Below, piece after piece: positions 2,254-62,527 of a stretch of DNA of 64,000 bases. Numbering within the stretch: position 1 is the stretch's first letter; each line of letters begins with the position of its first letter. The notes under the pieces are model-generated. The model saw only the letters and a list, made by a program, of their open reading frames with translations, was not told the DNA's origin and searched no databases. The stretch spans positions 32,460-96,459 of the forward strand of contig JAJDYG010000009.1 in the NCBI GenBank assembly GCA_022822855.1. The letters run 5' to 3'. Made by a program: the position numbers and the translations under genes. Source of the DNA: Dehalococcoidia bacterium. Its GTDB lineage: Bacteria; Chloroflexota; Dehalococcoidia; Bin125.

Positions 2254-4269
2254 ATGAGCGACCGAAACTATTGGCAGCGGCTGAGGCGGAAGCAGATGAG
2301 TCGCCGGACGCTCTTGCGGGCGTCCGGTCGAGCCGGGGTGGGCGCCGCCGGCCTGGCGCTGGTCGGTTGCGGCGGCGACGACGATGACGACAGTGCCTCG
2401 CAGGTTGCTCAGCCGCAGCAACAGCAACAGCAGGCGACGCAGCAGCAGGCCCAACCGCAACAACAGCAGCAGGCCATGCAGCAGCAGGCCCAGCAACAGC
2501 AGGCAGAGGACTCTGCCGATCAGCAGGCCCAACAAGCCGACCAGCAAGAGCAAACCGTTGCTGACGCCGACGATCAGCAGCAGCAACAAGTCGCGGCGTC
2601 CAATATCGTCCGCGGAGGAGACCTGCGGTTCTCAACGCCTGCTGCAACCCACGACTATTTCGACCCGCACAGAGCCGTCTTTGGGCCCACCCAATTCTGG
2701 ATGGGCTTCTACATGAACTATCTGATTCGCTGGCGCAACAAGGAACAGGGGATTCTTGAGGCGGATGTCGCTTCGTTGCCGGAGATTCCCGATGACGAGA
2801 CATACATCTTTCGCGTTGACCAGGGGGCTCGCTACTGGGATCAGTACCCGACGGAAGGCGGGCGCGAGGTCACTGCCGAGGACATCCGATTGAATTTCCT
2901 GCGGCAGATCGAGGCCGTCGACGCTAATGGCGCTGAAGACGGTACCTTCCTTGGGGCATCGGCCTTCCGCAAGACCGCCTCGATGGACGTGCCGGACGAG
3001 ACGACCTTTGTCGCCAAGACGGACGGTCCGGACGCGACTTGGATGGGCGTTCCCCTACGTCCGTTTAGCTGGATCACCAGCCCCGAAGCGATCACGGAGT
3101 TTGGCGACCGCTGGCGCGACGAGCCGTCCAATGTCGAACTGTCGTCGGGAACCGGAATGTTCATCCCCCAGAACTTCGATCCGGACATCGGGATCGATAT
3201 GGTTCGCAACGACAACTACTGGAAGATGGGCGCCGACGGGCAGCCGCTGCCTTACAACGACACTGTCACGCTCTCGAACCTGACTGATCCCACCGCCGTT
3301 GAGGCTGCATACCGCGGACGTGAGATCTTCGTGGGCGGGTTCCCGCTCTCCTCCGTCCAGGCTGAGAGCATTCTTGGCGACTTCCCCGACCACGGCCAGG
3401 GACAGATCGCGTTCGGATTCACGATCATCACCGGCGGCGCGAACTTCAACGCCGATTATCCCGGAGAAGATGGTCTCGGTAATCCCTGGATCGATCGCCG
3501 CTTCACTCAGGCCATGCACGTCGCGGTCGATCGCTACCTGATGATTGACACCGTCTATCTCGGATCAGGAAAGCCCTCCGGGATGGGCGAGACGCCTTGG
3601 TACAACGCCTTCTGGGCGATTCCCGAGGACGAGCTCCTGCAGACGCCGGGCTTCCGCCCGGATCGCGAGGCTGACATCGCAGAGGCCCGGGCACTGTTCG
3701 ATGCGACCGGCTACGACCGGAGCCGCGGACTGACGCTGATTGCGCCTGACATCTGGGAAGGCACCTACCCGGGCATTCTTGAGACTGAGGTTGGCATGTA
3801 TCGCGAGGCCCTCGACCTCGAGGTCAGCTTCGACGTTCAGCCGTACACGGTCATCCTCCAGCGTTGGATCGAAGGCACGTATCCCGGTCAGGGTCCGCAA
3901 TGGACGAACCCGCCCTCCGACCTCGATCCGACAACGTCCTACAACAACAACTACATCCCGGGCGGCAGCACCAACAACCTCGCGTACGATCACCCGCGCA
4001 TGACGGAGATCGCTGAGACCATGACGGTCACCCTGGACCTGGAACAGCGCCAGCAGTTGGCCCACGAGGCTCAGCGGATCCTGCTTGGGACCCATCCTGA
4101 CTATGGGCTCGATGGTGTTGCCAACAGCCCGGGTGTGATGAACGGTATCTCGCCGGCAGTCTGGTGGCCGTTCGTCCATCGCAACGACGACACGCTCCAG
4201 TTTGCCCATGCCAGTCACCGCTACGACGACACCTGGGTCGACACTACTCACCCGGACTACCCGGCTTAG
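2254..4269 (+). CDS. ABC transporter substrate-binding protein, family 5 (paralog 2)
   Basis: Same N-terminal pattern (NYWQRLRRKQMSRRTLLRASGRAGVGAAGLALVGCGGDDDDD) and Q-rich linker. Conserved blocks shared with 63-2099 include FSTPAATHDYFDPHRAVFGPTQFWMGFYMNYLIRW and WTNPPSDLDPT. Confidence 0.85.
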   Translation: MSDRNYWQRLRRKQMSRRTLLRASGRAGVGAAGLALVGCGGDDDDDSASQVAQPQQQQQQATQQQAQPQQQQQAMQQQAQQQQAEDSADQQAQQADQQEQTVADADDQQQQQVAASNIVRGGDLRFSTPAATHDYFDPHRAVFGPTQFWMGFYMNYLIRWRNKEQGILEADVASLPEIPDDETYIFRVDQGARYWDQYPTEGGREVTAEDIRLNFLRQIEAVDANGAEDGTFLGASAFRKTASMDVPDETTFVAKTDGPDATWMGVPLRPFSWITSPEAITEFGDRWRDEPSNVELSSGTGMFIPQNFDPDIGIDMVRNDNYWKMGADGQPLPYNDTVTLSNLTDPTAVEAAYRGREIFVGGFPLSSVQAESILGDFPDHGQGQIAFGFTIITGGANFNADYPGEDGLGNPWIDRRFTQAMHVAVDRYLMIDTVYLGSGKPSGMGETPWYNAFWAIPEDELLQTPGFRPDREADIAEARALFDATGYDRSRGLTLIAPDIWEGTYPGILETEVGMYREALDLEVSFDVQPYTVILQRWIEGTYPGQGPQWTNPPSDLDPTTSYNNNYIPGGSTNNLAYDHPRMTEIAETMTVTLDLEQRQQLAHEAQRILLGTHPDYGLDGVANSPGVMNGISPAVWWPFVHRNDDTLQFAHASHRYDDTWVDTTHPDYPA

Positions 4270-4324
4270 GGGCGGACGACTCACGACGTCTGGACGGCCA
4301 GAAGCGAACTAGTCGGGAGCAGCG

Positions 4325-5950
4325 ATGCAGCGATATCTCATCCAACGCCTAATCCTCGTGATTCCGACGCTTTGGTTGGTGATCTCGCTGCTCTTCTTGG
4401 CTCTGCGGGCACTGCCGGGAGACTTCGTCACCCGTAAGCTCTCCAACCTTGAGAACCAGGGCGCTGAGCAGCGCGAGTCGGAAATCGTCGGCTTCATAGA
4501 AGTCGAGGACACGACACACCGGGTGATCTCGGGCGACACCCTGGAGGACATCGCAACGGAGAACGCCACGACCGTCTCCGCGTTGCTCGCTCAGAACCCG
4601 GATCTCGACACATCGGGCGAGCTCAGGCCCGGCACCCGGATCACCGTCATTCCTGGCCAGTTGCTGTCGCAGATCGCCATCGGAGAGAAAATTTCACTGC
4701 CTGAAGAAGTGGATACCGGCGTGCAGTTGCTGCTCGACCGCAACCCGGACGTTGACTTTCCTCAGTATCAGGGCCAGCCTTACGCGGAAGCAGGGACGAT
4801 TCTGATCCTGCGGAACACTCTGACGCTCGATGAACTGGCGCACGTCAACCGGATCGATGCCAGCGACATCCTCGCGGTCAATCCCACCGGCAGCGCTAGC
4901 AATCCCGACGGGAACTTATCGGCCGACACGCAATTGATCCCAACAGGACTTGTGGTTGCCGAAGAGGGCGACACGCTTGAAGGGCTCGCCGCGGCATTCG
5001 GTCGCGACCTCGAAGCGATGACCGCGGCTAACCGTGGAGTAGACCCGGCCGAACCCTTAGAAGCGGGGACAGACATTCTCATCCCCTCGGACCGGATCGT
5101 GACTCCGACTACCAAAATCACCGAGGCAAACATTCGGCATCGACTGGGCATCGACAAGCCGCTAGGCACTCAGTACATCGATTTCCTCTGGGAGACTGTG
5201 CGGTTGAAGTTCCGGCCGTCCTTCCAGACCCAGGAAGGGTCGCTGGACATCTTCCTGCGCGCCTTGCCGCGGACGTTGCACCTGAATGTCTACGCGTTGA
5301 TCGTGGCCCTGGTGATCGCCCTACCGGTCGGCATTCTGTCCGCGATGCGGCAGGACCGGCCTCTGGACTATGCCTTGCGCGGGTTCGCCATCCTCGCGCT
5401 GGCCGCGCCTTCCTTCTGGATCGCAACGATGATGATCTTTGTCGTCACACCGGGAGGCATTTCAGAAGCCGGGATCTGGTCGATTCCGCTGACATCGGAA
5501 GAGGCGAGATCGGTCTTCTCCTCCTTCACCGGAGCTCTGGCCCTGTACTCGATTCCTGCCGTCGCTGGCGGCATCGCAGCGGGAGCCGGCTTGATGCGGA
5601 TCACCCGGTCCGAACTGCTTGAGGTGCTGCGACAGGACTACGTCCGTACCGCATGGTCCAAGGGGCTCCGCGAACGAACAGTGATTCGCCGTCACGCGAT
5701 GCGCAACGCCCTGGTCAACGTGATGAGCGTCCTCGGCCTGCAGATTGCAGCGCTGGTCGGCGGCAACATCATCCTCGAGCTGCTGTTCAACATCCCAGGC
5801 ATCGGACTGTTGCTCATTCAGCGCATCAATCAGGCCGACCTGCCGGTCGTGCAGACGATGGTGTTCTTCTTCGCCCTGTTCATCATCATCGTGAACATCA
5901 TCATCGACATCTCGTACGCGGTGATTGACCCGCGTATTCGATACACCTAA
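4325..5950 (+). CDS. ABC transporter permease, DppB/OppB-like, with ~230-aa periplasmic insertion containing LysM-like repeats
   Basis: N-terminal TM helix plus the PGD motif typical of DppB. The conserved LGIDKPLGTQYIDFLW segment and C-terminal TM core (ALRNALVNV..IDISYAVIDPRIRY) are present. Between TM1 and the LGIDKP block lie three LysM-like units, e.g. HRVISGDTLEDIATENATTVSALLAQNPDLDTSGELRPGTRITVIPG. Confidence 0.85.
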   Translation: MQRYLIQRLILVIPTLWLVISLLFLALRALPGDFVTRKLSNLENQGAEQRESEIVGFIEVEDTTHRVISGDTLEDIATENATTVSALLAQNPDLDTSGELRPGTRITVIPGQLLSQIAIGEKISLPEEVDTGVQLLLDRNPDVDFPQYQGQPYAEAGTILILRNTLTLDELAHVNRIDASDILAVNPTGSASNPDGNLSADTQLIPTGLVVAEEGDTLEGLAAAFGRDLEAMTAANRGVDPAEPLEAGTDILIPSDRIVTPTTKITEANIRHRLGIDKPLGTQYIDFLWETVRLKFRPSFQTQEGSLDIFLRALPRTLHLNVYALIVALVIALPVGILSAMRQDRPLDYALRGFAILALAAPSFWIATMMIFVVTPGGISEAGIWSIPLTSEEARSVFSSFTGALALYSIPAVAGGIAAGAGLMRITRSELLEVLRQDYVRTAWSKGLRERTVIRRHAMRNALVNVMSVLGLQIAALVGGNIILELLFNIPGIGLLLIQRINQADLPVVQTMVFFFALFIIIVNIIIDISYAVIDPRIRYT

Positions 5951-9412: not shown

Positions 9413-9516
9413 CCTGCCTGCATGGCAAGGGAGCCGAAGCAGCCGGCGAGCGACATCGCCGAGCGAGGCCGGATTTCCCCAGCAGCATCCTGCTCAAGCA
9501 GGAGTGACGGGATCAC

Positions 9517-10998
9517 ATGCAGAAGTACCTGATCCGACGATTCCTGCTTGTGATCCCCACCTTGTGGCTGGTTATCTCGATCCTCTTCCTCGTGCTGAAT
9601 GCGTTGCCGGGCGACTACGTCACAATCAAGCTGTCCAACTTGGAAGCATCAGGCGCGACCAAGATTGAAGCTGAGATCGTCGGCGAGCTGGAGGTCGAAC
9701 GCACCCTGCATCGCGTCGTCGGTGGCGACACTGTCGCCTCAGTTGCGGCGCAGTATGGGGCTGCCGTTGACGACATCGTTGCCGTCAACCCCAATCTTGA
9801 TGCCGGATCTGAGCTTCGGCCCGGCTCGACCATCGTGGTGATCGATGGCCAACTCCTCTCGTCTATCGCCCGGACCTCGAGGCTTTCCCTGCCCGAGGAG
9901 AATGAAGCGGGCATCGCGCTGCTTCAGGAGCGCAACCCCGACGTTGAATTCGGCACCTTCGCCGGTCAGCCGTTCGCGCCCGCCGGCGTCACTCTGACCC
10001 TGCGCGAGAGCACGACCTTACGTGAACTCGCCGAAGTCAACCGCGTCTCCCCCGACGACTACATGAACGTCAACTTGGAGGGCACTCCCGCCAATGAAGA
10101 TGGCTCCTTGACCGTCGATACGCCGCTCTTACCCGGCGACATCTACATCTCGCCGACCCGAGAGATCACCGAGGCGAGCATCAAACATCAGCTTGGCATC
10201 GACAAGCCGCTGGGCCAGCAGTACATCGAGTACCTGTGGGACACGATCCGGTTCCAGTTCCGACCGTCCTTCCAGACCAACGAACCGTCGATGGACATCT
10301 TCCTGCGCTCGTTGCCACGGACGCTGCACCTGAATGCTTACGCGTTGATCGTGGCAGTCACCGTGGCGTTGCCGGTTGGCATCCTCTCGGCGATGCGGCA
10401 GGACCAGGCGCTCGATTACGGACTGCGAGGATTCGCCATCCTGGCCTTGGCCGCGCCTTCCTTCTGGATCGCGACCATGATGATCTTTGTGGTCTCGCCG
10501 GGTGGCATCTTCGAAGGAGGGATTTGGTCGATCCCGCTCACCGACGAGGAGGCGCGGAGCATCTTTACCTCGGTTGATGGGTTCTTTGCGCTCTACACGA
10601 TTCCGGCTGTAGCGGGCGGCATAGCCGCCGGCGCCGGACTAATGCGCATCACTCGCTCCGAGTTGCTCGAGGTCCTGCGTCAGGACTACGTGCGCACGGC
10701 TTGGTCAAAGGGCTTGCGCGAGCGAGCCGTGATCCGCCGGCACGCGCTTCGCAACGCGCTCGTGCCGGTGCTCAGCGTGTTCGGACTGCAGTTGGCGGCC
10801 CTGGTCGGCGGCAACATCATCCTCGAAGTGCTGTTCAACATCCCCGGCGTCGGACTCATGCTGCTGCAGCGGCTCTACCAGGCAGACATCCCAGTGATCC
10901 AGACGGCGGTGTTCTTCCTCGCGCTGTTTGTGATCATCGTCAACATCGTGATCGACATCAGCTACGCGCTGATCGATCCGCGCATCCGCTACACCTAG
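9517..10998 (+). CDS. ABC transporter permease, DppB/OppB-like, with LysM-like periplasmic insertion (paralog)
   Basis: Collinear with 4325-5950. Carries the LysM-like unit HRVVGGDTVASVAAQYGAAVDDIVAVNPNLDAGSELRPGSTIVVIDG and the LGIDKPLGQQYIEYLW block. Confidence 0.85.
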   Translation: MQKYLIRRFLLVIPTLWLVISILFLVLNALPGDYVTIKLSNLEASGATKIEAEIVGELEVERTLHRVVGGDTVASVAAQYGAAVDDIVAVNPNLDAGSELRPGSTIVVIDGQLLSSIARTSRLSLPEENEAGIALLQERNPDVEFGTFAGQPFAPAGVTLTLRESTTLRELAEVNRVSPDDYMNVNLEGTPANEDGSLTVDTPLLPGDIYISPTREITEASIKHQLGIDKPLGQQYIEYLWDTIRFQFRPSFQTNEPSMDIFLRSLPRTLHLNAYALIVAVTVALPVGILSAMRQDQALDYGLRGFAILALAAPSFWIATMMIFVVSPGGIFEGGIWSIPLTDEEARSIFTSVDGFFALYTIPAVAGGIAAGAGLMRITRSELLEVLRQDYVRTAWSKGLRERAVIRRHALRNALVPVLSVFGLQLAALVGGNIILEVLFNIPGVGLMLLQRLYQADIPVIQTAVFFLALFVIIVNIVIDISYALIDPRIRYT

Positions 10999-15366: not shown

Positions 15367-15488
15367 GCCGGTCAGGAACCACTGCGACATAGGAGGCCGT
15401 TCGATGGTCGGTTAGGATTGCCCTATGCGTTGCATCGTCTCTGCCGGTGCCGCGGCGTGGATCTTCCGATGACTCGAAGGGGACAGTG

Positions 15489-16139
15489 ATGCCCGAACTT
15501 TCTATCAGCGATCAGATCGTCCTGTTGGGACTAGGCGAAGACGGAGTGCTCGACCGGCCATACGACGGCCGGCTCGACTACGCGATTGCCGGAGCGTCGC
15601 TGCTGGACCTGTCGTTCCTGAATCGGATCGATACCGACCCCAACCGGCTGTTCATCATCTCCGCTGACTCGACCGGCAATCCGCTGCTCGACAGTGTGCT
15701 TCATCAGATCAATTCCGGCCCGCCCAATCAGCCGATCTCATACTGGATCTCCGAGATCGCGCGATACTCGCTCGTGCTTCGACAGCAGATCATTGAAGAC
15801 CTGACCGATCGACACGTCATCCAGCGGGAAGCCGGACGCCGGCTGATCGTGCTCAAGTCGGAGAAGTTCCCGCCGGTCGATCCACAGGTTGTCCGCGATG
15901 TCCAGCGCAAGCTGATCGATACCCTCCTCTCCGACGAGATCCCCGACCCCGAGACGGTCGCCCTGATCGGTCTGGCGCGGGCCAGCCGTCTGCTCGAGCT
16001 CTTGCTTCCCCGCGAGTACCTCGACCGCGTCGAAACCCGCATCGAACAGCTCGCCCGCATGGACCTGATCGGCATGAGCGTGAACCGCACCCTGGACGAA
16101 ATCCAGGCGGCCGTCGCGCTCGCGGTGCCGGGCCTCTAG
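15489..16139 (+). CDS. GPP34/GOLPH3-like family protein (hypothetical)
   Basis: N-terminal pattern LSISDQIVLLGLGEDG ... YAIAGASLLDLSFLNRI resembles the GPP34 family. Start taken at the internal Met (MPELSIS). Confidence 0.5.
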   Translation: MPELSISDQIVLLGLGEDGVLDRPYDGRLDYAIAGASLLDLSFLNRIDTDPNRLFIISADSTGNPLLDSVLHQINSGPPNQPISYWISEIARYSLVLRQQIIEDLTDRHVIQREAGRRLIVLKSEKFPPVDPQVVRDVQRKLIDTLLSDEIPDPETVALIGLARASRLLELLLPREYLDRVETRIEQLARMDLIGMSVNRTLDEIQAAVALAVPGL

Positions 16140-29926: not shown

Positions 29927-30670
29927 TTGGCCATGGTTCGCAAACGGATGCTCGAGGACGACGCCCGGCGGTTGCTGGGCGGATCGCCGGTGGCGATCGT
30001 CAGCACGAACTGGCGAGGCGTCGGCAATGCGGCGCCGATTGCCTGGTCGATGCCGGTCTCGGTCAATCCGCCCCTGGTCGCGATCGCAGTGCATCCTTCG
30101 CGGCGCACCCACGACATGATCAAGTTTGGGGAAGAGTTCGCGATCAATATCCCATCGAAGGTGCTGCTCAATCACACGCAGTGGCTGGGTATGGTATCGA
30201 ACACGATCGGCGACAAATTAGAAGCATCCCGTGTGCCCTCGTTCAAAGGCAAGGAGATTGATTCACCCTTGCTCGAGGGTTGCATCGGTTGGATTGAATG
30301 TACGCTTCATGACTTCTACACAGTGGGCGATCATACGTTATTCATCGGCAAAGTTGTGTCGGCTCAGGCCGATACGGACGGTTTCGATTTCAACACCGGT
30401 ATGTGGTCGCTGGACGACGATGAGTACAAGCCGCTGATGTACCTGGGCGGCCGCAGCTACAGCATCCTCGACGATCTCTTCGACGCGACGGTCGAGCAAC
30501 GCCCGGTCGAACAGATGCTTGAGGAGGGTATCGGGCGGGAGCTGGAGGAGGCTGAGGCTGAGCGCCGCATCAAGCGCGAGGAAGAAGCCGAGCGTCGTGA
30601 GGAAGAAGAGCGTCGCGGGGAGGCCGAGCCCGATACGTCAAGCCTGCCGCGAGAGCTACCCGATGCGTAG
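29927..30670 (+). CDS. Flavin reductase-like domain protein with Glu/Arg-rich C-terminal tail
   Basis: Flavin reductase-like core (LLGGSPVAIVSTNWRGVGNAAPIAWSMPVS). C-terminal EAEAERRIKREEEAERREEEERRGEAE charged segment. Confidence 0.7.
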   Translation: MAMVRKRMLEDDARRLLGGSPVAIVSTNWRGVGNAAPIAWSMPVSVNPPLVAIAVHPSRRTHDMIKFGEEFAINIPSKVLLNHTQWLGMVSNTIGDKLEASRVPSFKGKEIDSPLLEGCIGWIECTLHDFYTVGDHTLFIGKVVSAQADTDGFDFNTGMWSLDDDEYKPLMYLGGRSYSILDDLFDATVEQRPVEQMLEEGIGRELEEAEAERRIKREEEAERREEEERRGEAEPDTSSLPRELPDA

Positions 30671-32882
30671 TCGCCATGTGCGCCATGTCCCTGTCGAGCT
30701 GGCTGCCGCTGCGTTCATCGTGGTTGCTCTCGTCCTCGTCGCGCTGTCAGGGACTCCAGGTAGCGACCCAACGTCGGCCCAGGACCAAGATGAAGCGGTC
30801 ACGGCGCGGGTCGTGGCCCGAGATGCGACGGGCAACCGAATTGAGTTCGGGATCCGCACTGGGGAAAGGACATACCTTCCCGACGAGCGCTTCATGTCTC
30901 GAAACAGGAGGAGCGTGCGCTGGGCGCAGAGTTCTGAGGTCGTCATCGCGGACGGGCGGGCGCTACATGTGACTGCGCGGCGACTCACGAGCGGCAGCTT
31001 CGAGTTTGGGATTCGCGTCGACGGTGTGACAGAGCGGCTCCTGCCCCAGTCACGTTTCGTATCGGCCGACCGGGACCTCGACGAGTGGCTCGACAGCAGC
31101 CCCGTCACACTGCCACATCCGGAGATACTGCGGACCGTCACGCCTGTCTCGCCGGAATTGCTCGGGCTTGGGAGCAGTCATAGCTGTGCCGTGACGGGCG
31201 ATGGAAGCATCGAGTGCTGGGGTTCCCACGAGTACGGTCAGAATGACCCGCCAGACGGGCAGTTCCTGACGATCAGCGCCGATGCAGTCCAGAGTTGCGC
31301 TTTGAATGTCGGCGGCGGCATCGTCTGCTGGGGCGACAACAGCCTGGGTCAACTCGATGCGCCGGTGGGACGCTATGTTGCGCTCGGCATAGGCGGTGTT
31401 CATGGCTGCGCACTGGATGAGGACGGGGCCATCGATTGCTGGGGACTCGACTTCAATGGGCAGGCAACATCGCCGGAGGGCAGGTTTGTCGCCCTGAGCT
31501 CGGGCACCGGCCACAACTGCGCCATCACCACATCCGGCGAAGTGGAATGCTGGGGCGACAATCTGTGGGGTCAGTCTGACGCTCCCGAGGGGCGCTTCGT
31601 TGCTGTTGACGCGGGAGGCGCCCATAGCTGCGCTCAGGATGCAGCAGGCGCGATTCAATGCTGGGGCTACGGTGGCGATGGTCAGTTGGGCATTCCACCC
31701 GGCCGATACACCAGTTTCGTCGCCGGAGCCTGGCATACCTGTGCCATTGACGGCGACGGTCATCTCGGCTGTTGGGGTTGGGACGGTCACAACCAGAGCA
31801 GTCCGCCGCCGGGATCCTACGCTGCAGTTGGCGCAGGCGGTGCACACACCTGCGGCGTTGCGACCGACGGCAGCGTCCGCTGTTGGGGCTCAAACGGCGC
31901 CGGTCAGACCGAGTCGCCGAGTGGAGAGTTCAGCGAGGTTGTGGCAGGTTTCTTACACACCTGTGCTCTCGACGAGGAGGGCGCCGCCTCATGTTGGGGC
32001 ACAAACGGAGATGGTCAATCGGACGCACCGGAAGGGTCGTTCATCTCAATCGGTCCCGGCCTGTCACATACCTGCGCGGTCGACCAGGACAATGAGTTGG
32101 TCTGTTGGGGCTGGGATGGCTACGGCCAGACCGATGCGCCTGTCAGCGAGCTACCCGAGGATGAATCGCGGTTGGTTCCGTTCAGACTCGGGGACAGCGA
32201 CTGCGAACAGGACGAGTTCGGCGCCTTCAGCAGAGATACCTGTTGGGGCAGCGACGAGGATTCTCCGCTCAGTCCACCGAGGGTAAGTCACTACCAGACG
32301 GTCGGCAGCGGAGGTTCATTCTCTTGCGCCCTCACGCTCAACAACGAGATCGACTGCTGGGGCACCGGGCGAAGCGGGCAACTGGAGTCGCCTTCTGGCC
32401 AGTGGCGGAGGCTGAGCGTCGGCTTTGCGCATGCCTGCGCACTGGACGAAGCTGGCGAGATCACCTGCTGGGGGGCGAACTCATACGGACAGTCTGATGC
32501 GCCGGAAGGGCCATTCGTGTCCATCTCGGCGGGAATCGTGCATACCTGCGCACTTGATGCCGCAGGTCAGGTCACCTGCTGGGGCGACGACGAATACGGA
32601 CAACTCGAGATCACGCCAGGGTCCTACGAAGTCGTGTCGTGCGGCGGGGAACACACTTGCGCGATGACCGCCTCGGGCGAGATCTCCTGCTGGGGACGCG
32701 ACGTCTGGGGTCAGGCGAGCCCGCCTGAAGGCGTGTACACCGCGCTGTCGGTGGGCGCCGAGCACAGTTGCGCCCTGAACGAGGAGGGCGAGATCGTCTG
32801 CTGGGGCATCAACAGGTACGGGAACACCGACGTCCCGGAAGCGCTCCAGCAGCCCGGCGCCGTCTCGGTTGCGAGCGAATAG
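30663..32882 (+). CDS. Membrane-anchored RCC1-repeat (beta-propeller) protein with N-terminal novel tandem repeat module
   Basis: N-terminal TM (AAAFIVVALVLVAL), then two ~55-aa repeats (ARxxxGxxEFGIR...LP..RF). About 15 RCC1-like blades follow, each with H-x-C-A ... C-W-G-x-(N/D)-x-x-G-Q. Start at the ATG overlapping the upstream stop. Confidence 0.8.
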   Translation: MRSRHVRHVPVELAAAAFIVVALVLVALSGTPGSDPTSAQDQDEAVTARVVARDATGNRIEFGIRTGERTYLPDERFMSRNRRSVRWAQSSEVVIADGRALHVTARRLTSGSFEFGIRVDGVTERLLPQSRFVSADRDLDEWLDSSPVTLPHPEILRTVTPVSPELLGLGSSHSCAVTGDGSIECWGSHEYGQNDPPDGQFLTISADAVQSCALNVGGGIVCWGDNSLGQLDAPVGRYVALGIGGVHGCALDEDGAIDCWGLDFNGQATSPEGRFVALSSGTGHNCAITTSGEVECWGDNLWGQSDAPEGRFVAVDAGGAHSCAQDAAGAIQCWGYGGDGQLGIPPGRYTSFVAGAWHTCAIDGDGHLGCWGWDGHNQSSPPPGSYAAVGAGGAHTCGVATDGSVRCWGSNGAGQTESPSGEFSEVVAGFLHTCALDEEGAASCWGTNGDGQSDAPEGSFISIGPGLSHTCAVDQDNELVCWGWDGYGQTDAPVSELPEDESRLVPFRLGDSDCEQDEFGAFSRDTCWGSDEDSPLSPPRVSHYQTVGSGGSFSCALTLNNEIDCWGTGRSGQLESPSGQWRRLSVGFAHACALDEAGEITCWGANSYGQSDAPEGPFVSISAGIVHTCALDAAGQVTCWGDDEYGQLEITPGSYEVVSCGGEHTCAMTASGEISCWGRDVWGQASPPEGVYTALSVGAEHSCALNEEGEIVCWGINRYGNTDVPEALQQPGAVSVASE

Positions 32883-37938: not shown

Positions 37939-39036
37939 CTACGGGGTTGCAGCTTCCACGCGCCGCCTGATGCCATCGAAACTCGTCCCCGCGTTGATCC
38001 CGTTGACATGAACCACGGGACCGTATCTGATTCCAATCGCCGCTGCGTCACGGACAATCTGGTTATGAGCCTGGCGCGTGGCCGGATCGTCGTAGCACCG
38101 CTCGAAGCTGTCGGTGTCGAGCCCGATCTCACCGGCATAGTCAATGAGCTGGTCGCGCGAAGCTGCACGGCTGCCGTCAACAAGGAACCGATCATGGAAC
38201 TCCCAGAAGGCGGCGCCGCTTTGCTCGGTGGCGCAGACCATCGCATAGCCGACCCGCTCGGACGCCGCGCCGACGTAGGCGATGTTGACGAACTGGAACC
38301 GGGCGATGCCGGTGCGGACGTACTCTTCAATCACGCGCGGCTCAACCTGAGTCGCGATTCTGCGGCAGTTTGGTCAAAACGGATCGCCGTACTCGACAAT
38401 CAGCACCGGCGCATCCGGATCGCCGACGATGCTGCCTTCCACGATCAGGCCGTCGCGGTGGGTCCCGCTGATTCTCTCCACGTCGGATGCTTCGGTCGTC
38501 CCTTCCCCGGTGTCGTCGTCCGTATCGTCTGGTTCAGGCACCGATTCAGGCAGTGACTCGGGCTCGTCGTGTTCGTCGTCCTGTTCGCGAGCAGGCAGCA
38601 GGATCGGCGTGCTCGAGCGCCACGCTCCTACGGTCGACGCGCGCGGGAAGTACCGCCTCGTGGGCAGGAACTCCTGTCGCGGCTCGTCAATCCTAAGGCC
38701 GAACTCGACCCGAGTCTCGCCGTTGCGGCGGGCAATGACTCGTACCTCAGTGCCGTCCGACAGTTCGACGAGGGAACTCTCTCTCCAGCCTTCGTCGCTG
38801 ATAGCGGCCGAGAAGACGCGCAGACGCGGCAGTTGGTTGCCTTCTGAGGTTCGCAGCCCGAACTCGATGTCGCCGTCAACCTGGAGCCGGGCGATGATCC
38901 GGACCGTTTCCCCGCCCTCGGAGCCGTGCCCGCTGATTGCGATCAGGCTGGCCAGCGATGACACAGCGATCAGCGCGAGCAGATTGATGGTTCGAATGGC
39001 GCTTGCGCGAATCATGGTGTCCGGATCATAAGACAA
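37939..39036 (-). CDS. DsbA/BdbD-like thiol-disulfide oxidoreductase interrupted by an in-frame TGA at the first Cys of the CxxC motif (candidate selenoprotein U-P-N-C, or pseudogene)
   Basis: Two ORFs (38374-39036 and 37939-38334) lie in the same frame, separated by 13 sense codons after a TGA at 38374-38376. The junction reads APVLIVEYGDPF-[TGA]-PNCRRIATQVEPRVIEEYVRTGIARFQFVNIAY. This matches the DsbA/BdbD active-site region (VEFGDY-C-PSC...FSFVNV). The N-terminal part has a TM plus the tandem repeat module also seen in the RCC1 protein. Confidence 0.6.
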
Positions 39037-39094
39037 GGGGCGGGGCGAATGCCCCGCCCCTTGCCTGGCGGTTCGTTGAACCGGGTGTCCGGAG

Positions 39095-40387
39095 CTAGAA
39101 CGCCAACGGCGCCGGGTCGGCCTGGCCGGTCTCCATGCCCTGCGGCCACCAGTGGTCTTCCCAACCTTCGTCGTCCCAGATGTGCTTGAGGTTGGGCAGC
39201 ACCTGCTGGGCGGTCATCTCGATGTTGGGGATGGCCAGTTCCTTGGGAATCGAGCCGAACTGGTTGAGGATCATCAGGTGTCCGACGTGGAGCGTGCGAA
39301 TCACTTCCTCGAGCTGTTCGGTGACCTGGCTCGGCGTGCCGGCGACGATGTTGCCTTCGCGGATCAGGTCGGCCCAGGTGATCTCGGAGTTGGCCTTGGA
39401 TTCGACCATCTTCTCGGCGGTTTTCTCGCCTTCGAACTTCTTCGAGTCGCCGAAGACCGGCTTGAGGCCCTGACTGCGAGTGAAACCCTGCTCGATGGTG
39501 CGGACGGTCCGATAGCCGGGCGGGTCGGCGTAGCGCGGGTCGATGTGGAGCATCTTGTTGTAGAAGTACTCCGCGTGCGGCCCGAACTTGTCGGCCACTT
39601 CCTGCTCGGTTTCGCCGACGGCGACGAGCTGGAGGAATCCGGCGTGGTACGGGTTGAGCGGCTTCTCGCGCTGCTGCATCGTGCGCCAGAATCCGTCGAC
39701 GTTCTTCTGACCGGCCTTGTAGCCGCCGTAGGAGAGGTAGCAGTAGACGTAGTTGTGGTCGGCGCACCACTCCCAGGTCTCGACCGAGCCGCCGCCGGGA
39801 ATCCAGACGGGCGGGTGCGGCTGCTGGATCGGTCGCGGCCAGATGTTGATGTAGCGCAGCTGGTTGTAGCGGCCGTTGTAGGAGAAGACCTCGGGCCGCG
39901 TCCAGGCCTGCGTGATCACATCGGCGGCCTCGTAGTACTTGTCGCGCAGGTGCGACGGGTTGGCGCCGTAGCAGAAGCAGTCGTCCATCGGCGTGCCGAC
40001 GGGGAAGCCGGCGACGAGGCGACCGCCCGAGATGCAGTCGAGCATCGCGAACTCTTCGGCGACGCGAGTTGGCGGGTTGTAGAGCGCAATCGAGTTGCCG
40101 AGCACGACGATCGCGACGTCCTTGGTGCGCCGGCAGAGGTTGGCGGCCATCAGGTTGGGCGACGGCATCAGGCCGTAGGCGTTCTGGTGGTGCTCGTTGA
40201 TGCAGATGCCGTCGTAGCCGGCAGCAGCGGCGGCCTCGAGCTCGTCCAGGCCGTCGTTGTACATCTCGTGCGCCTTGGCCGGGTCGAACAGCTTGGAGTC
40301 GACGTCTACCCAGACCGAGTTGTTCGTCTCTGCGAAGTCGGGCGGCAGATCCCGATACGGCATCAGATGGAAGAACTCAAATTTCAC
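39095..40387 (-). CDS. LLM-class flavin-dependent oxidoreductase (luciferase-like)
   Basis: Luciferase-like monooxygenase family pattern (MKFEFFHLMPY..., GGRLVAGFPVGT). Confidence 0.8.
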   Translation of the reverse strand: MKFEFFHLMPYRDLPPDFAETNNSVWVDVDSKLFDPAKAHEMYNDGLDELEAAAAAGYDGICINEHHQNAYGLMPSPNLMAANLCRRTKDVAIVVLGNSIALYNPPTRVAEEFAMLDCISGGRLVAGFPVGTPMDDCFCYGANPSHLRDKYYEAADVITQAWTRPEVFSYNGRYNQLRYINIWPRPIQQPHPPVWIPGGGSVETWEWCADHNYVYCYLSYGGYKAGQKNVDGFWRTMQQREKPLNPYHAGFLQLVAVGETEQEVADKFGPHAEYFYNKMLHIDPRYADPPGYRTVRTIEQGFTRSQGLKPVFGDSKKFEGEKTAEKMVESKANSEITWADLIREGNIVAGTPSQVTEQLEEVIRTLHVGHLMILNQFGSIPKELAIPNIEMTAQQVLPNLKHIWDDEGWEDHWWPQGMETGQADPAPLAF

Positions 40388-52171: not shown

Positions 52172-53362
52172 TCAGGATCCGTCCTGCCACGCAGCGGTCC
52201 GCCGTCCTCGGCGCTCCGCGAATCCGGCGGCGACATCGACCAGCGCTTTCGCCGGACCCAACCGGCTCTGGAACGATGTGTAGGTCGACTCTCCCCGGAC
52301 GATCCGGCAGAACGCGGTCCAGAAACGGTCGGAGCGGCGCAGCAACTGCACATACGGCCACGGGCTTTGGTGGAACAGGGCCTGGAGTTGTCGTGCGACC
52401 CTCAACTCGGGTTCAATCTCCGCCTCAATGGCCGATTGGTATGAAGAGAAATCGGTCGACTCGCCGGCAATGAGATCACGGGCAGCATCGGCAGCAAGCT
52501 GCCCGCTGCGGATTGCGTTGCCAATGCCCTCACCGGACAACGGATCGACCAAGCCTGCTGCGTCCCCGACGAATGCGGTTTGTCCTGAAACCAGCGCGCT
52601 ATCCGGATCTCTAAGCGGCAAGTGGTGCCCGCGAAGTTCGGTCAGCGAGCCGCCATCGAACGATTCGCAGCCCGCGTACTTCGATAGCTCGTCACGGAGT
52701 GTCGGCGCTACCGCCGGGAAGCCGCCGAGTCCGACGTTGCAGTGGTCGCCCTTGGGAAAGACCCAGCCGTAACCACCGGGCATCGAACCAAGTTCCAGTC
52801 CGACGGCGTCGCTCCATCGTTCGCCAGCCGTTTGCCGCGAGCGATCGGCATTGCCTTCCAGAGCCACCGCCCCACGGAGCCTCGGGAGTCCGAGCGCGCG
52901 CCGCACGATTCCGTTGGCGCCGTCCGCGGCAATGACCGCGTCGGCACGGTGATTGTCACCGTTCGCGAGCGAGAGTGAAGTCCCCTCAATGCCCCGAACA
53001 GGCGAACCGTCTCGGAACTCCGCGCCGACCTCGACTGCCCGCTCGACCATGAACGCGTCCAGACGCGAGCGCTGCGTCATGATCGCCAGGGGTTCGTGAT
53101 AATGGTGTTCGAACTCCCAGGAGCGCTTGTAGCGCACGCGAAACGAGGCGATGGTCTGCTCGGTCACCGCGTCGAGTGAGTATGGCAGCAGGTTGACCGC
53201 CGAGATCAGAACGCCGCCGCCGCACGGTTTGTCGCGAGGGAACTCGGCGCGGTCGACCAGCAGCACCTCGGCGCCCGCCGTGGCGAGGTCGTAAGCCGCC
53301 GTCGATCCGCCGGGTCCGGCCCCAACGACTATGACGTCCCAGCTTCTTGCCATTTGTCCCAC
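52172..53362 (-). CDS. Geranylgeranyl reductase family FAD-dependent oxidoreductase
   Basis: DVIVVGAGPGGSTAA FAD motif and DKPCGGG. Confidence 0.8.
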   Translation of the reverse strand: MGQMARSWDVIVVGAGPGGSTAAYDLATAGAEVLLVDRAEFPRDKPCGGGVLISAVNLLPYSLDAVTEQTIASFRVRYKRSWEFEHHYHEPLAIMTQRSRLDAFMVERAVEVGAEFRDGSPVRGIEGTSLSLANGDNHRADAVIAADGANGIVRRALGLPRLRGAVALEGNADRSRQTAGERWSDAVGLELGSMPGGYGWVFPKGDHCNVGLGGFPAVAPTLRDELSKYAGCESFDGGSLTELRGHHLPLRDPDSALVSGQTAFVGDAAGLVDPLSGEGIGNAIRSGQLAADAARDLIAGESTDFSSYQSAIEAEIEPELRVARQLQALFHQSPWPYVQLLRRSDRFWTAFCRIVRGESTYTSFQSRLGPAKALVDVAAGFAERRGRRTAAWQDGS

Positions 53363-53898
53363 ACCGTCTTGAGGCCGGCTGCGATCGGCGCGGCGAAACA
53401 GAAGATGATCGACTCAATCGGCTCGCCGAAGGCGATCGCCAGGAAGGGCAGAGGCGCCGCGACCAGCAGGATGCCGAGTTCGGCGATCCGGGTGATGAGG
53501 TAGGTCAGCCCGCCGACGACGAACGTCACACCGAATTGCCAGGGCAGAAACGCACCTGCCGCGCCGAGCCCGGTCGCGGCCGCCCGCCCACCATTGAAGC
53601 GCAGAAACAGCGGCCACATGTGGCCAACCATTACCAGACCGCCAGCCGCCATCCACCAGCCGAGGTCCAGGCCCCAGAATCGGGCAATCGAGACGGCCAG
53701 CAGCCCTTTGCCGATGTCCAGCACGATGATCACCGCGCCGAAGAAGTGTCCAGCTCCCATCCGCGCAGCGTTGGCCGCGCCGACGTTCCCGTCCCCGGCC
53801 TGTCGCAAGTCCTGACCCGTCCGCCAGCGGAACACCAGCCAGGAAACGGGCACGGAGCCCAGCAGGTAGGCGAGGATGAGCGTGACCGCCTCTGGCAT
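53329..53898 (-). CDS. plsY: Glycerol-3-phosphate acyltransferase
   Basis: AYLLGSVP..., GDGNVGAAN and DIGKGLLAV motifs. The 3' end overlaps the GGR start. Confidence 0.8.
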   Translation of the reverse strand: MPEAVTLILAYLLGSVPVSWLVFRWRTGQDLRQAGDGNVGAANAARMGAGHFFGAVIIVLDIGKGLLAVSIARFWGLDLGWWMAAGGLVMVGHMWPLFLRFNGGRAAATGLGAAGAFLPWQFGVTFVVGGLTYLITRIAELGILLVAAPLPFLAIAFGEPIESIIFCFAAPIAAGLKTVWDKWQEAGTS

Positions 53899-53934
53899 TG
53901 CCGATCCTTGGGCGGTGTTCCGGCCGTCCGGCGA

Positions 53935-54864
53935 TCAGTCGTTCGCGTACACCGGCGTCAGCCAGTGTGAGTATGAATCGCGGTTGCCGATGATCGCGTC
54001 AAAATAGAGGCGCTCCAGTTGCGCAGTGATCGGGCCCGTCTCGCCTCCGTTGATCACCCGCCGGTCGACCGAAGAAATGGGCGTGACATGGGCAGCCGTA
54101 CCGGTCATGAAGACTTCGTCGGCCAGCCACAGTTCCGAGCGATCAAGCGTGCGCTCGACCGTCGGAATCCCAAGTTCTTGCTCGGCCAGCTCCATGACGG
54201 TGTTTCGCGTAATCCCGACCAGGATGTTGTCGGAGCTTGGCGGCGTGTAGATCACCCCGTCGTTGATGATGAAGATGTTTTCGCCCGAGCCCTCCGAGAC
54301 GTGCCCGTCCTCGTTGAGCATGATCGCCTCGTCGAACCCCGCCGTCTCCGCCTCGGTCTTGGCCAACGCCGAGTTGATGTATGCGCCGGTCACCTTGGCT
54401 CGAACCGGAATCGACTGGTCTTCAGTCCGCCGCCAGGACGATGTCACAACATGCACGCCGCCGGCCGCATCGAGGTATGCGCCCCAGGGGATCAGGAAGC
54501 AGAGGAAATCGTCGGCAATCCCGTGCAGCCGGACGCCCAGCGCTTCGGCCGACTTGTAGACCATCGGACGCACGTACACGTCCTGCTTGAATTCGCTCCG
54601 GCGCACGAGATCAACAGTGATGTCGCAGAGCTCATCGTCCGACAGCGGCAGGTCCATCATCAGCGCGTGAGCTGACTTGCGCAGCCGCTCGTAGTGTTCG
54701 CGCATGCGGAACAGGTAGAGCTCCTCGTGGTCGGCGTTCCAGTTGGCGCGGATGCCCTCGAATACGGCCGTACCGTAGTGCAGAGCATGGGTCATGACGC
54801 TGATCTTGGCGTCGGCCAGGGGCATGACTTCGCCCTGGAGGTAGGCCATTTCCGTGCCGGACAT
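53935..54864 (-). CDS. ilvE: Branched-chain amino acid aminotransferase
   Basis: BCAT class IV aminotransferase pattern (HALHYGTAVFEGIRA, ...EGSGENIF). Confidence 0.85.
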   Translation of the reverse strand: MSGTEMAYLQGEVMPLADAKISVMTHALHYGTAVFEGIRANWNADHEELYLFRMREHYERLRKSAHALMMDLPLSDDELCDITVDLVRRSEFKQDVYVRPMVYKSAEALGVRLHGIADDFLCFLIPWGAYLDAAGGVHVVTSSWRRTEDQSIPVRAKVTGAYINSALAKTEAETAGFDEAIMLNEDGHVSEGSGENIFIINDGVIYTPPSSDNILVGITRNTVMELAEQELGIPTVERTLDRSELWLADEVFMTGTAAHVTPISSVDRRVINGGETGPITAQLERLYFDAIIGNRDSYSHWLTPVYAND

Positions 54865-54988
54865 CGCGCGCTCCTCGTGAACCTGAGGTCAGTGCCGAAG
54901 CATTACCCGTCACGATACACGCGAGTTCGGCCGCGTTCGATTGTTGTGATCACTACTTGATGAGGTTCTACGGCTCGTGCTCTGGTCT

Positions 54989-61529: not shown

Positions 61530-62030
61530 TCAGCCGGAGCGTTCGTCCAGAGCAAGTTGATACGGCAGCGGATCGCCCAGGTCACCGTCGCGCCAGTGGG
61601 TGAGCGAGTGGGCGAGGTCTGACAGCTCCGACGCCGATTGACCCTCGGTCGCCCGCAGGATCTGCTCCGTCGTCGCGATCTCGGCGCCGTTGAAGCCGAA
61701 CAGGTCGGCACTGGTCAGCGCCATCGGACGGTACTGCGTGTACCCGCCCAGGTCCGACGGTTGGATCACGATGCTGCCGTCATCGATCAGCGGGTCCAGG
61801 TACAGCTCGAACTTGACCAGCCACGGCCCGTGCTCGGCGACCACATAGTCCGCCCCGGTGATCGACTCCCCGTGCCGGCGATAGTGCAGAAAGTCGCTCA
61901 GGCAGAGCAACGTGTTCAGTTGACTCGTCCCGAACGAGCGCGCCGTGATCCGCCGCTCGCACAGATAGATGATCAACTCGCGCAGCTTGGGTTCTCCCAA
62001 CTCCGAGGTGAAGCGGGTGAGCGTGGTCAT
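61530..62030 (-). CDS. Panacea (DUF4065, SocA-like) domain protein - candidate antitoxin
   Basis: Pattern KLRELIIYLC...LCLSDFLHYRRHGESITGADYVVAEHGPW and the C-terminal SASELSDLAHSLTHW resemble the DUF4065/Panacea domain. Confidence 0.55.
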   Translation of the reverse strand: MTTLTRFTSELGEPKLRELIIYLCERRITARSFGTSQLNTLLCLSDFLHYRRHGESITGADYVVAEHGPWLVKFELYLDPLIDDGSIVIQPSDLGGYTQYRPMALTSADLFGFNGAEIATTEQILRATEGQSASELSDLAHSLTHWRDGDLGDPLPYQLALDERSG

Positions 62031-62042
62031 ACGATCTCCAGT

Positions 62043-62432
62043 TCAGCCGCTCGTCCGGGCGGGCTTGGCCGCCCTGGGTTTCGCATGGCGTAGCTCGTGC
62101 GGCACGCCGCGGGCTTCGAACAGGTCGACCCACTCCTGCTGAGTCCGGTTGCGCAAGGCCTCAGTGATCACCGTCGATAGCTCCGAGGCGTGCTGAAGTC
62201 GCAACTCCGCCGTCGCAAAGCGCGGGTCGTCCTCGATCTGAAGCTGAAACTCCGGCAGATACGCCTCGCCGTCGGCTGGATGGCGCTCGTGATGATCCCA
62301 CATGTGATCGGCGAGTGCAGCCTCACCCAGTGTGTCGCGCAGCCGTTGCCACTCCGCGTCGGTCGCAATCGTCAGATGGACCCAGCCGTCTGTCGCGCGG
62401 TACGCCCTCTGCAATGCGTTGAAGTCCGCCAT
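62043..62432 (-). CDS. Hypothetical protein, upstream partner of the Panacea-domain gene (candidate toxin)
   Basis: 129-aa ORF lying 13 nt upstream on the same strand. No recognisable domain. Confidence 0.4.
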   Translation of the reverse strand: MADFNALQRAYRATDGWVHLTIATDAEWQRLRDTLGEAALADHMWDHHERHPADGEAYLPEFQLQIEDDPRFATAELRLQHASELSTVITEALRNRTQQEWVDLFEARGVPHELRHAKPRAAKPARTSG

Positions 62433-62527
62433 CTTCCGGTTCCTCTTCTCTGCCTCAACTTGGGCGCAGGCTAGCGGTTAGCCTGCCCTCGAGTTCACTG
62501 GCAATGAGGACCGAAAAGGAGCAAGCC

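Follow-up and report, generated by a model that had tools for sequence, protein, structure and literature searches.

The locus

The window considered here is a 64,000-nucleotide stretch of DNA from a Dehalococcoidia bacterium (GenBank assembly GCA_022822855.1, contig JAJDYG010000009.1, positions 32,460 to 96,459), which carries on its minus strand a gene for a predicted thioredoxin-fold oxidoreductase with a stop codon in its active site. Between 39036 and 37939 the frame is interrupted by a single internal stop, a TGA at 38376–38374, and it reads across this stop as VLIVEYGDPF-stop-PNCRRIATQVEPRVIEEYVRTGIARFQFVNIAY. The initial annotation had described two minus-strand open reading frames (ORFs) in one frame, parted by a single TGA and 13 sense codons, and reading the frame bears this out; as listed, the downstream ORF begins with GTG at 38334 and encodes 131 residues. 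Public annotation presents the gene as split by the gene callers, with the N-terminal piece labeled "hypothetical protein." Judged from the sequence and its relatives, this in-frame TGA almost certainly does encode selenocysteine (Sec), in an exported DsbA/BdbD-like disulfide oxidoreductase of sponge-associated Chloroflexota. A selenoprotein with the motif U-P-N-C was also the reading favored at the outset, and it is now strongly supported by the conservation of the TGA, by the coding continuation behind it and by a conserved hairpin resembling a selenocysteine insertion sequence (SECIS).

The complete predicted selenoprotein gene extends from an ATG at 39015 to a TAG at 37941–37939 (37939–39015, minus strand; 358 codons, including Sec214). 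The start had initially been placed at the TTG at 39036. The ATG is the more likely start, because a GC-rich, terminator-like hairpin that follows the upstream gene overlaps the TTG (39036–39034); most of the homologs begin with M-x-R, with a hydrophobic segment directly after. The UGA (38374–38376, minus strand) would encode residue 214, with which the U-P-N-C redox motif opens, and a TGC (38365–38367, minus strand) encodes Cys217, the resolving Cys of UxxC, which is invariant at position +3 in all copies of the gene.

The C-terminal part of the protein (residues ~190–358; 37942–38448, minus strand) is a DsbA/BdbD-like thioredoxin-fold domain. With Cys written for Sec, the read-through product matches the Pfam family PF13462 (Thioredoxin_4) over residues 194–343 and profile positions 5–151 of 165 (72.7 bits against a cutoff of 23.2; 5e-20). 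PF01323 (DSBA) gives a weak and partial match (29.0 bits, cutoff 25.6) to residues 248–339, outside the UxxC region. The best curated match is NCBIfam NF041057 (1.1e-33, 116.8 bits, residues 157–340), below that family's 190-bit equivalog cutoff, and the closest solved structures by sequence are Bacillus subtilis BdbD (PDB 3eu3; 4.8e-13) and the actinobacterial DsbA (PDB 4pwp/4pwo; 6.6e-09). The BdbD alignment sets the stop opposite the first Cys of CPSC, so that the original placement of the TGA at the first Cys of CxxC stands, and the UGA is aligned with the first Cys of CPxC in the 14 Cys relatives examined. U214-P-N-C217 follows directly after VLIVEYGDPF, and the UGA falls between strand β1 and helix α1 of the domain. 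When aligned by eye, YGPVVHVNG (the putative cis-Pro loop) matches GTPAFFVNG of the Cys relatives, with a conserved Pro.

Conservation of the UGA and of the downstream frame

A search of the read-through sequence against 5.8 billion clustered proteins returned 78 close homologs, 42–96% identical, from Chloroflexota metagenome-assembled genomes. All are 198–264 residues long and end exactly at ...EYGDPF (a few in Y or L), and those that carry a source name are without exception named "hypothetical protein." The codon itself was read in 39 copies of the gene, which comprise 31 loci that each stem from a different GTDB species representative (Dehalococcoidia or Chloroflexota throughout, with sponge projects as the source of many), three contigs with an identical neighboring gene, the window, one tandem paralog and three members from JGI metagenomes. 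It is TGA in every one (36 of 36 Chloroflexota genome or assembly loci and 3 of 3 from JGI), and never TAA, TAG, TGC or TGT; the comparison with relatives that had been proposed for this codon thus comes out for TGA and not for Cys. The TGA is retained down to 42% N-terminal identity, and an in-frame x-x-Cys follows it in every copy.

The frame behind the TGA is kept as well: 36 copies were checked past this codon, and in 31 of them it runs for exactly 145 codons. The orthologs have their real end at TAG, TGA or TAA, with TGA in 11 of the 36 checked. Over 465 pairwise comparisons, the downstream sequences show 0.25 differences per site at the first codon position, 0.22 at the second and 0.47 at the third, and a third position that differs about twice as much as the other two is the pattern of a sequence that is translated and kept by purifying selection. 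The clearest exception to an intact downstream frame is found in OZ219805.1 (locus L021, ~3592–3870), where the frame closes at 93 codons instead of 145, possibly through a frameshift, a pseudogene or a long-read assembly error. Another locus, on the Dehalococcoidia chromosome OZ241375.1 (L025), has two tandem selenoprotein paralogs, at 2424 and 3460, both with the TGA and the hairpin.

To look for a Cys form of the protein, 1.84 billion cluster representatives were scanned exhaustively by HMMER with the 144 residues that follow the UGA, and no Cys-containing ortholog was found among them. The closest matches, at 100–137 residues, are fragments: C-terminal ORFs left orphaned in other members with the TGA. 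Full-length relatives reach 41% identity at best, and where their alignment begins at the first residue of the query, they have a Cys just before it, yielding C-P-x-C. Distant metagenome matches carry TGC at the position of the UGA. As far as public data go, the subfamily appears to exist in the Sec form only, while the wider superfamily uses Cys at this position.

The SECIS-like hairpin and its codon context

The sequence just behind the UGA can be folded into a SECIS-like hairpin (38336–38356, minus strand), CGCG-A-CUCA / GGU / UGAG-C-CGCG, whose apical GGU loop (38347–38345) is 26 nucleotides (nt) from the UGA. Its parts are cgcgacuc (38356–38349), AGGUU (38348–38344) and gagccgcg (38343–38336), which form seven pairs and one A.C mismatch; the element spans 18–38 nt past the UGA, with the 5' arm at 18–25 nt. 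The initial annotation had picked out the same hairpin at the same distance. It is present as described, and it turns out to be the conserved element.

The published model of bacterial SECIS (bSECIS) elements calls for an apical loop of 3–9 nt with a G among its first two positions, an upper stem of 4–16 bp, a spacing of 16–37 nt between UGA and loop, and a minimum free energy (MFE) of -7.5 kcal/mol or lower (PMC13188914). The hairpin in the window fits the model on all four points, with a GGU loop, 4 bp in the upper stem, 26 nt from UGA to loop and -8.9 kcal/mol, and in 35 of the 39 copies the hairpin fits it as well. Of the other four, three miss the energy limit only, by 0.1 kcal/mol, and one (L015) has a different local fold.

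Across 31 distinct sequences, synonymous variation is entirely lacking from codons +7 to +12 behind the UGA (GCG ACT CAG GTT GAG CCG). Among these codons are the T-ending ACT and GTT, which are rare elsewhere in these GC-rich genes, and the third positions of the conserved residues on either side vary freely. In the ungapped alignment (A2), 85% of the cells of the nine-pair helix are paired. Two-sided changes occur at pair 27–47 (CG 15, UA 8, GU 3, UG 2) and at pair 26–48 (UA 18, GC 3, UG 2), the covariation score was reached by none of 500 shuffles, and the pairing falls to 23–44% in control helices slid by 1–3 columns. In one ortholog (L034) the loop amino acids have changed from QV to RS, with the stem kept and the loop still a G-led triloop, GUC. 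When the hairpin core CTCAGGTTGAG was sought across the window with up to one mismatch, the extra matches were at chance level only.

There is also a conserved context on the other side of the codon. The codons GAT CCG TTT lie just upstream of the UGA (38377–38385, minus strand). Elsewhere in this genome TTC and GAC are preferred, but Phe-1 is encoded by TTT in 31 of 31 sequences and Asp-3 by GAT in 87%. This context may affect the efficiency of UGA recoding.

Is the UGA read as selenocysteine?

Some of the results weigh against selenocysteine. Taken as a single sequence, the hairpin is indistinguishable from shuffles at its -8.9 kcal/mol (z = -0.56), and the wider region of 86 nt gives z = +1.4, again for this sequence alone. 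The QVEP peptide that the hairpin encodes is itself conserved, so that the conservation of the nucleotides in part reflects a constraint on the protein. No Rfam family matches the hairpin, either at the gathering threshold over the whole window or at a permissive E-value around the site, and the same scans gave no SECIS and no tRNA-Sec, the only hits being two chance matches to snoRNAs. Finally, no selA, selB, selD or tRNA-Sec was detected in the 64-kb window by Pfam on ~55 ORFs, ARAGORN and Rfam. It is the comparative evidence, not the folding of one sequence, that raises the hairpin above chance. As for the machinery, ARAGORN found no tRNA gene in the window or in the 34 loci L001–L034, and selA, selB, selC and selD were likewise lacking from the flanks of these loci. 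On the other hand, the genome of one TGA-bearing ortholog (L019; bin125, MPNM, contig MPNM01000004.1) is listed with one SelA, one SelB and one SelD in the supplementary COG table of PMC5649159, and SelA and SelB co-occur in most of the Aplysina sponge-symbiont bins of that study (Slaby et al. 2017, PMC5649159).

Could the gene be a fresh pseudogene, or the product of a sequencing or assembly error, in which one change from TGC or TGT to TGA inactivated an ordinary Cys-type DsbA gene? A Cys codon is indeed only one substitution away from this stop, and the splitting of the gene by the gene callers, with a "hypothetical protein" for an N-terminal piece, is what a broken gene would look like. 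However, a fresh lesion would not recur as the same TGA in all 39 copies, 31 of them from different species-level genomes, with no TGC or TGT anywhere; it would not leave a 145-codon frame intact and under purifying selection; and it should have left a Cys ortholog somewhere among the 1.84 billion representatives. An error shared systematically by Illumina, hybrid and long-read projects is implausible. There is next to no chance that this explanation is right, and the fresh pseudogene that the initial annotation had kept as its alternative is refuted by the conserved TGA and the coding continuation.

If the UGA is translated, selenium might still not be involved. A near-cognate or suppressor tRNA could insert Trp, Cys or Gly, or UGA could have been reassigned, with the hairpin acting to slow the ribosome or to block release factor 2; the inserted residue is not identifiable from the sequence, and the Sec machinery was not seen in the 64-kb window. 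However, TGA closes ~13 of the window's 42 Pfam-supported genes, and since this is about a third of them, TGA is an ordinary stop here and the code has not been reassigned; the 11 of 36 orthologs that terminate in TGA tell the same story. Moreover, the UGA occupies a catalytic Cys position, at which only Cys or Sec would preserve the chemistry, the small, G-containing apical loop and its spacing are typical of SelB-dependent SECIS elements, and an ortholog-bearing genome (L019) has SelA, SelB and SelD. Reading through without selenium is very improbable. The locus might also make two products, a 213-residue anchored β-repeat protein that ends at the UGA and a thioredoxin part made from an internal start. 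The GTG-initiated ORF of 131 residues downstream and the C-terminal fragments of 100–137 residues predicted by gene callers would fit this arrangement, and an N-terminal fragment is probably indeed made when selenium is limiting and translation ends at the UGA. Yet the stop falls inside the thioredoxin fold, between β1 (VLIVEYGDPF) and the active-site helix, so that neither piece is a complete domain. The GTG of the window is CTG (Leu) in 74% of the orthologs and no start codon is conserved, any downstream start loses the xxC motif, and the two parts invariably share one frame, with nothing inserted between them. A pair of separate products is very improbable, and the recoding of UGA as selenocysteine is the explanation that is carried forward below.

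Protein architecture and proposed mechanism

Ahead of the thioredoxin-fold domain, the protein starts with a hydrophobic signal anchor or signal peptide (residues ~4–26; 38938–39006, minus strand), for which AlphaFold2 (AF2) models a helix over residues 4–19. There is no Cys in residues 1–213 and hence no lipobox, the N-terminus being a plain hydrophobic helix, which is consistent with the exported, membrane-anchored protein proposed initially. Next comes a tandem pair of ~50-residue β repeats (residues ~36–140; 38596–38910, minus strand), with no Pfam or NCBIfam family and no clear structural neighbor, followed by an acidic low-complexity linker (residues ~145–185; 38461–38583, minus strand). 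The AF2 model of the N-terminal 213 residues, built on 75 sequences, is very confident for the all-β domain of residues ~36–140 (pLDDT 95–97) and leaves the linker disordered, at a pLDDT of ~50 and with no secondary structure.

The same tandem module of ~50-residue β repeats is found in a second protein of the window (36% identity, E 8e-20), a 787-residue ORF at 30519–32882 on the plus strand, which has a transmembrane segment and in which the β repeats are followed by many Cys-rich, RCC1-like CWG.N..GQ repeats. No family was assigned to this ORF in the NCBIfam scan, or in Pfam according to the record of the L001 ortholog. The β-repeat pair has the look of an extracytoplasmic module of this lineage that is so far undescribed.

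How might the gene be expressed and what might its product do? When the ribosome arrives at UGA214, the hairpin 18–38 nt downstream, with its apical GGU loop, would recruit SelB-GTP-Sec-tRNA(Sec). Sec would be inserted at position 214 and translation would run on through 144 further codons, to give a selenoprotein of 358 residues. The N-terminal hydrophobic helix would anchor this product on the outer face of the cytoplasmic membrane, where the thioredoxin-fold domain would present its U-P-N-C active site with Sec at the exposed, nucleophilic position. U214 and C217 would then cycle between the selenol/thiol and selenylsulfide forms and so oxidize, reduce or isomerize the disulfides of exported proteins. 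Its most likely activity is that of a thiol-disulfide (selenylsulfide) oxidoreductase working outside the cytoplasm on exported proteins, whether as an oxidase in the manner of BdbD or as a reductase/isomerase in that of DsbG. The binding of SelB, the incorporation of selenium, the topology, the substrates and the redox direction in this scheme are all predictions from the sequence.

Genomic context

In essentially all loci the gene order is the same: a family-5 solute-binding protein, a luciferase-like monooxygenase (LLM), the Sec-DsbA, two VOC/glyoxalase genes and two divergently oriented SDR genes. NCBIfam gave only generic LLM, SDR, VOC and solute-binding protein (SBP) assignments for these neighbors, with no specific pathway clue. 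Between the monooxygenase gene and the selenoprotein gene lies the GC-rich, terminator-like hairpin (39034–39062, minus strand), found at the same place in most loci at -30 to -44 kcal/mol, with stem sequences that differ between lineages. A promoter and terminator scan around the gene gave nothing useful.

The luciferase-like monooxygenase directly upstream (430 residues; 39095–40387, minus strand) is 93–100% identical at the protein level across species-level genomes (L004–L034, at ~1500–2900). Its nucleotides are 91–96% identical in the nine loci checked at the DNA level, its GC content at third codon positions is 0.91, and 11–23% of its third positions differ, compared to ~47% in the Sec-DsbA domain. 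The SBP_bac_5 gene upstream of it is also 91–95% identical. The near-identity of these two genes could reflect either an unusually strong constraint or a recent sweep.

Elsewhere in the window, two BPD_transp_1 ABC permeases with an N-terminal LysM, an unusual fusion (4313–5947 and 9508–10995, plus strand), adjoin three large SBP_bac_5 genes, and a clear bacterial homolog of GPP34/GOLPH3 (15393–16136, plus strand; PF05719, 1.9e-36) sits amid genes of acyl-CoA metabolism. A second TGA-split gene was sought among same-frame adjacent coding segments, and no other TGA-interrupted gene was found in the window; the two candidates, 53329–54888 and 61530–62477, are adjacent same-frame genes. The latter (minus strand) consists of a truncated CoA-transferase III fragment (profile positions 262–308 only), a TGA and then an antitoxin-like gene with a SocA/Panacea domain in the same frame, and looks like an insertion that disrupted the CoA-transferase rather than a selenoprotein.

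Significance

Why has this gene not been recognized? Every public copy is annotated as a truncated "hypothetical protein" of ~215 residues, sometimes beside an orphan DSBA fragment of ~100 residues. NF041057, the closest curated selenoprotein model, falls short of its cutoff on this protein, which would account for the gene's being missed by annotation. Once the family is recognized, at least 31 species of sponge-associated Chloroflexota gain a selenoprotein, in keeping with the enrichment in SelA and SelB published for sponge symbionts, and a clean SECIS alignment becomes available for the phylum. As an apparently Sec-only enzyme of the DsbA type, it also offers a natural case for comparing Sec with Cys at the exposed nucleophile of an extracytoplasmic oxidoreductase. 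What is known of recoding and of thioredoxin-fold selenoproteins is unchanged by the finding.

A bolder proposal, which we regard as unlikely, would be that the proteins form an obligately selenium-dependent, exported DsbA-like subfamily that is confined to sponge-associated Dehalococcoidia, has no Cys form in public data and is fused to an undescribed β-repeat module shared with the Cys-rich, RCC1-like surface protein of the same genome. The gene would be locked in its conserved cluster (solute-binding protein, near-invariant luciferase-like monooxygenase, Sec-DsbA, two VOC/glyoxalase), and the enzyme would have a specialized, symbiosis-related extracytoplasmic redox role rather than one in general disulfide-bond formation.

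Comparison with known selenoproteins and SECIS elements

The UxxC class of selenoproteins has been known since 2005, when "DsbA-like" members (COG2761/PF01323) were first reported from the Sargasso Sea (PMC1088965). The family was counted in 41 organisms in 2016 (PMC5029168), and a 2026 review lists it together with a "DsbG-like" UxxC family that is defined by NF041057 (PMC13188914). What is new here is an unannotated subfamily with a distinctive N-terminal module and an apparently obligate use of Sec; no description of it was found in the literature on SAR202/Chloroflexi selenoproteins and "Rcas_1661."

The protein shares with the "DsbA-like" family a thioredoxin fold of the DsbA type, Sec at the first of the two Cys positions of CxxC and, a short way downstream, a SECIS whose small apical loop contains a G. 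However, that family is of the FrnE/COG2761 type and has widespread Cys homologs, whereas the protein described here is of the BdbD/Thioredoxin_4 (PF13462) type, with a marginal and partial match to PF01323 and a different N-terminal architecture. NF041057 (the Rcas_1661 family of thioredoxin-like (seleno)lipoproteins, after a Roseiflexus/Chloroflexi locus tag) comes closer, being thioredoxin-fold, extracytoplasmic and built around UxxC or CxxC with Sec first. In contrast to its members, the protein in the window scores only 116.8 bits against the required 190, lacks the lipoprotein Cys, carries a signal anchor together with two novel β repeats and the acidic linker, and belongs to a subfamily for which no Cys forms were found. 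By these sequence features it is a relative of the NF041057 family, not a member. BdbD (3eu3) and the actinobacterial DsbA (4pwp/4pwo) have in common with it the membrane-associated, extracytoplasmic topology predicted for it and the VEFGDxxCPxC ... FxFVN signature, but they use Cys and have neither a β-repeat module nor an acidic linker.

The hairpin can be compared in the same way to the bSECISearch consensus, which is of the Escherichia coli fdhF type. It resembles that consensus in having an apical loop of 3 nt that begins GG, an upper stem no shorter than 4 bp, the spacing of 26 nt and an MFE no higher than -7.5 kcal/mol. It differs in being short and weak in this particular sequence, with an A.C mismatch that divides the stem into 4 + 4 bp, and in having no match in Rfam.

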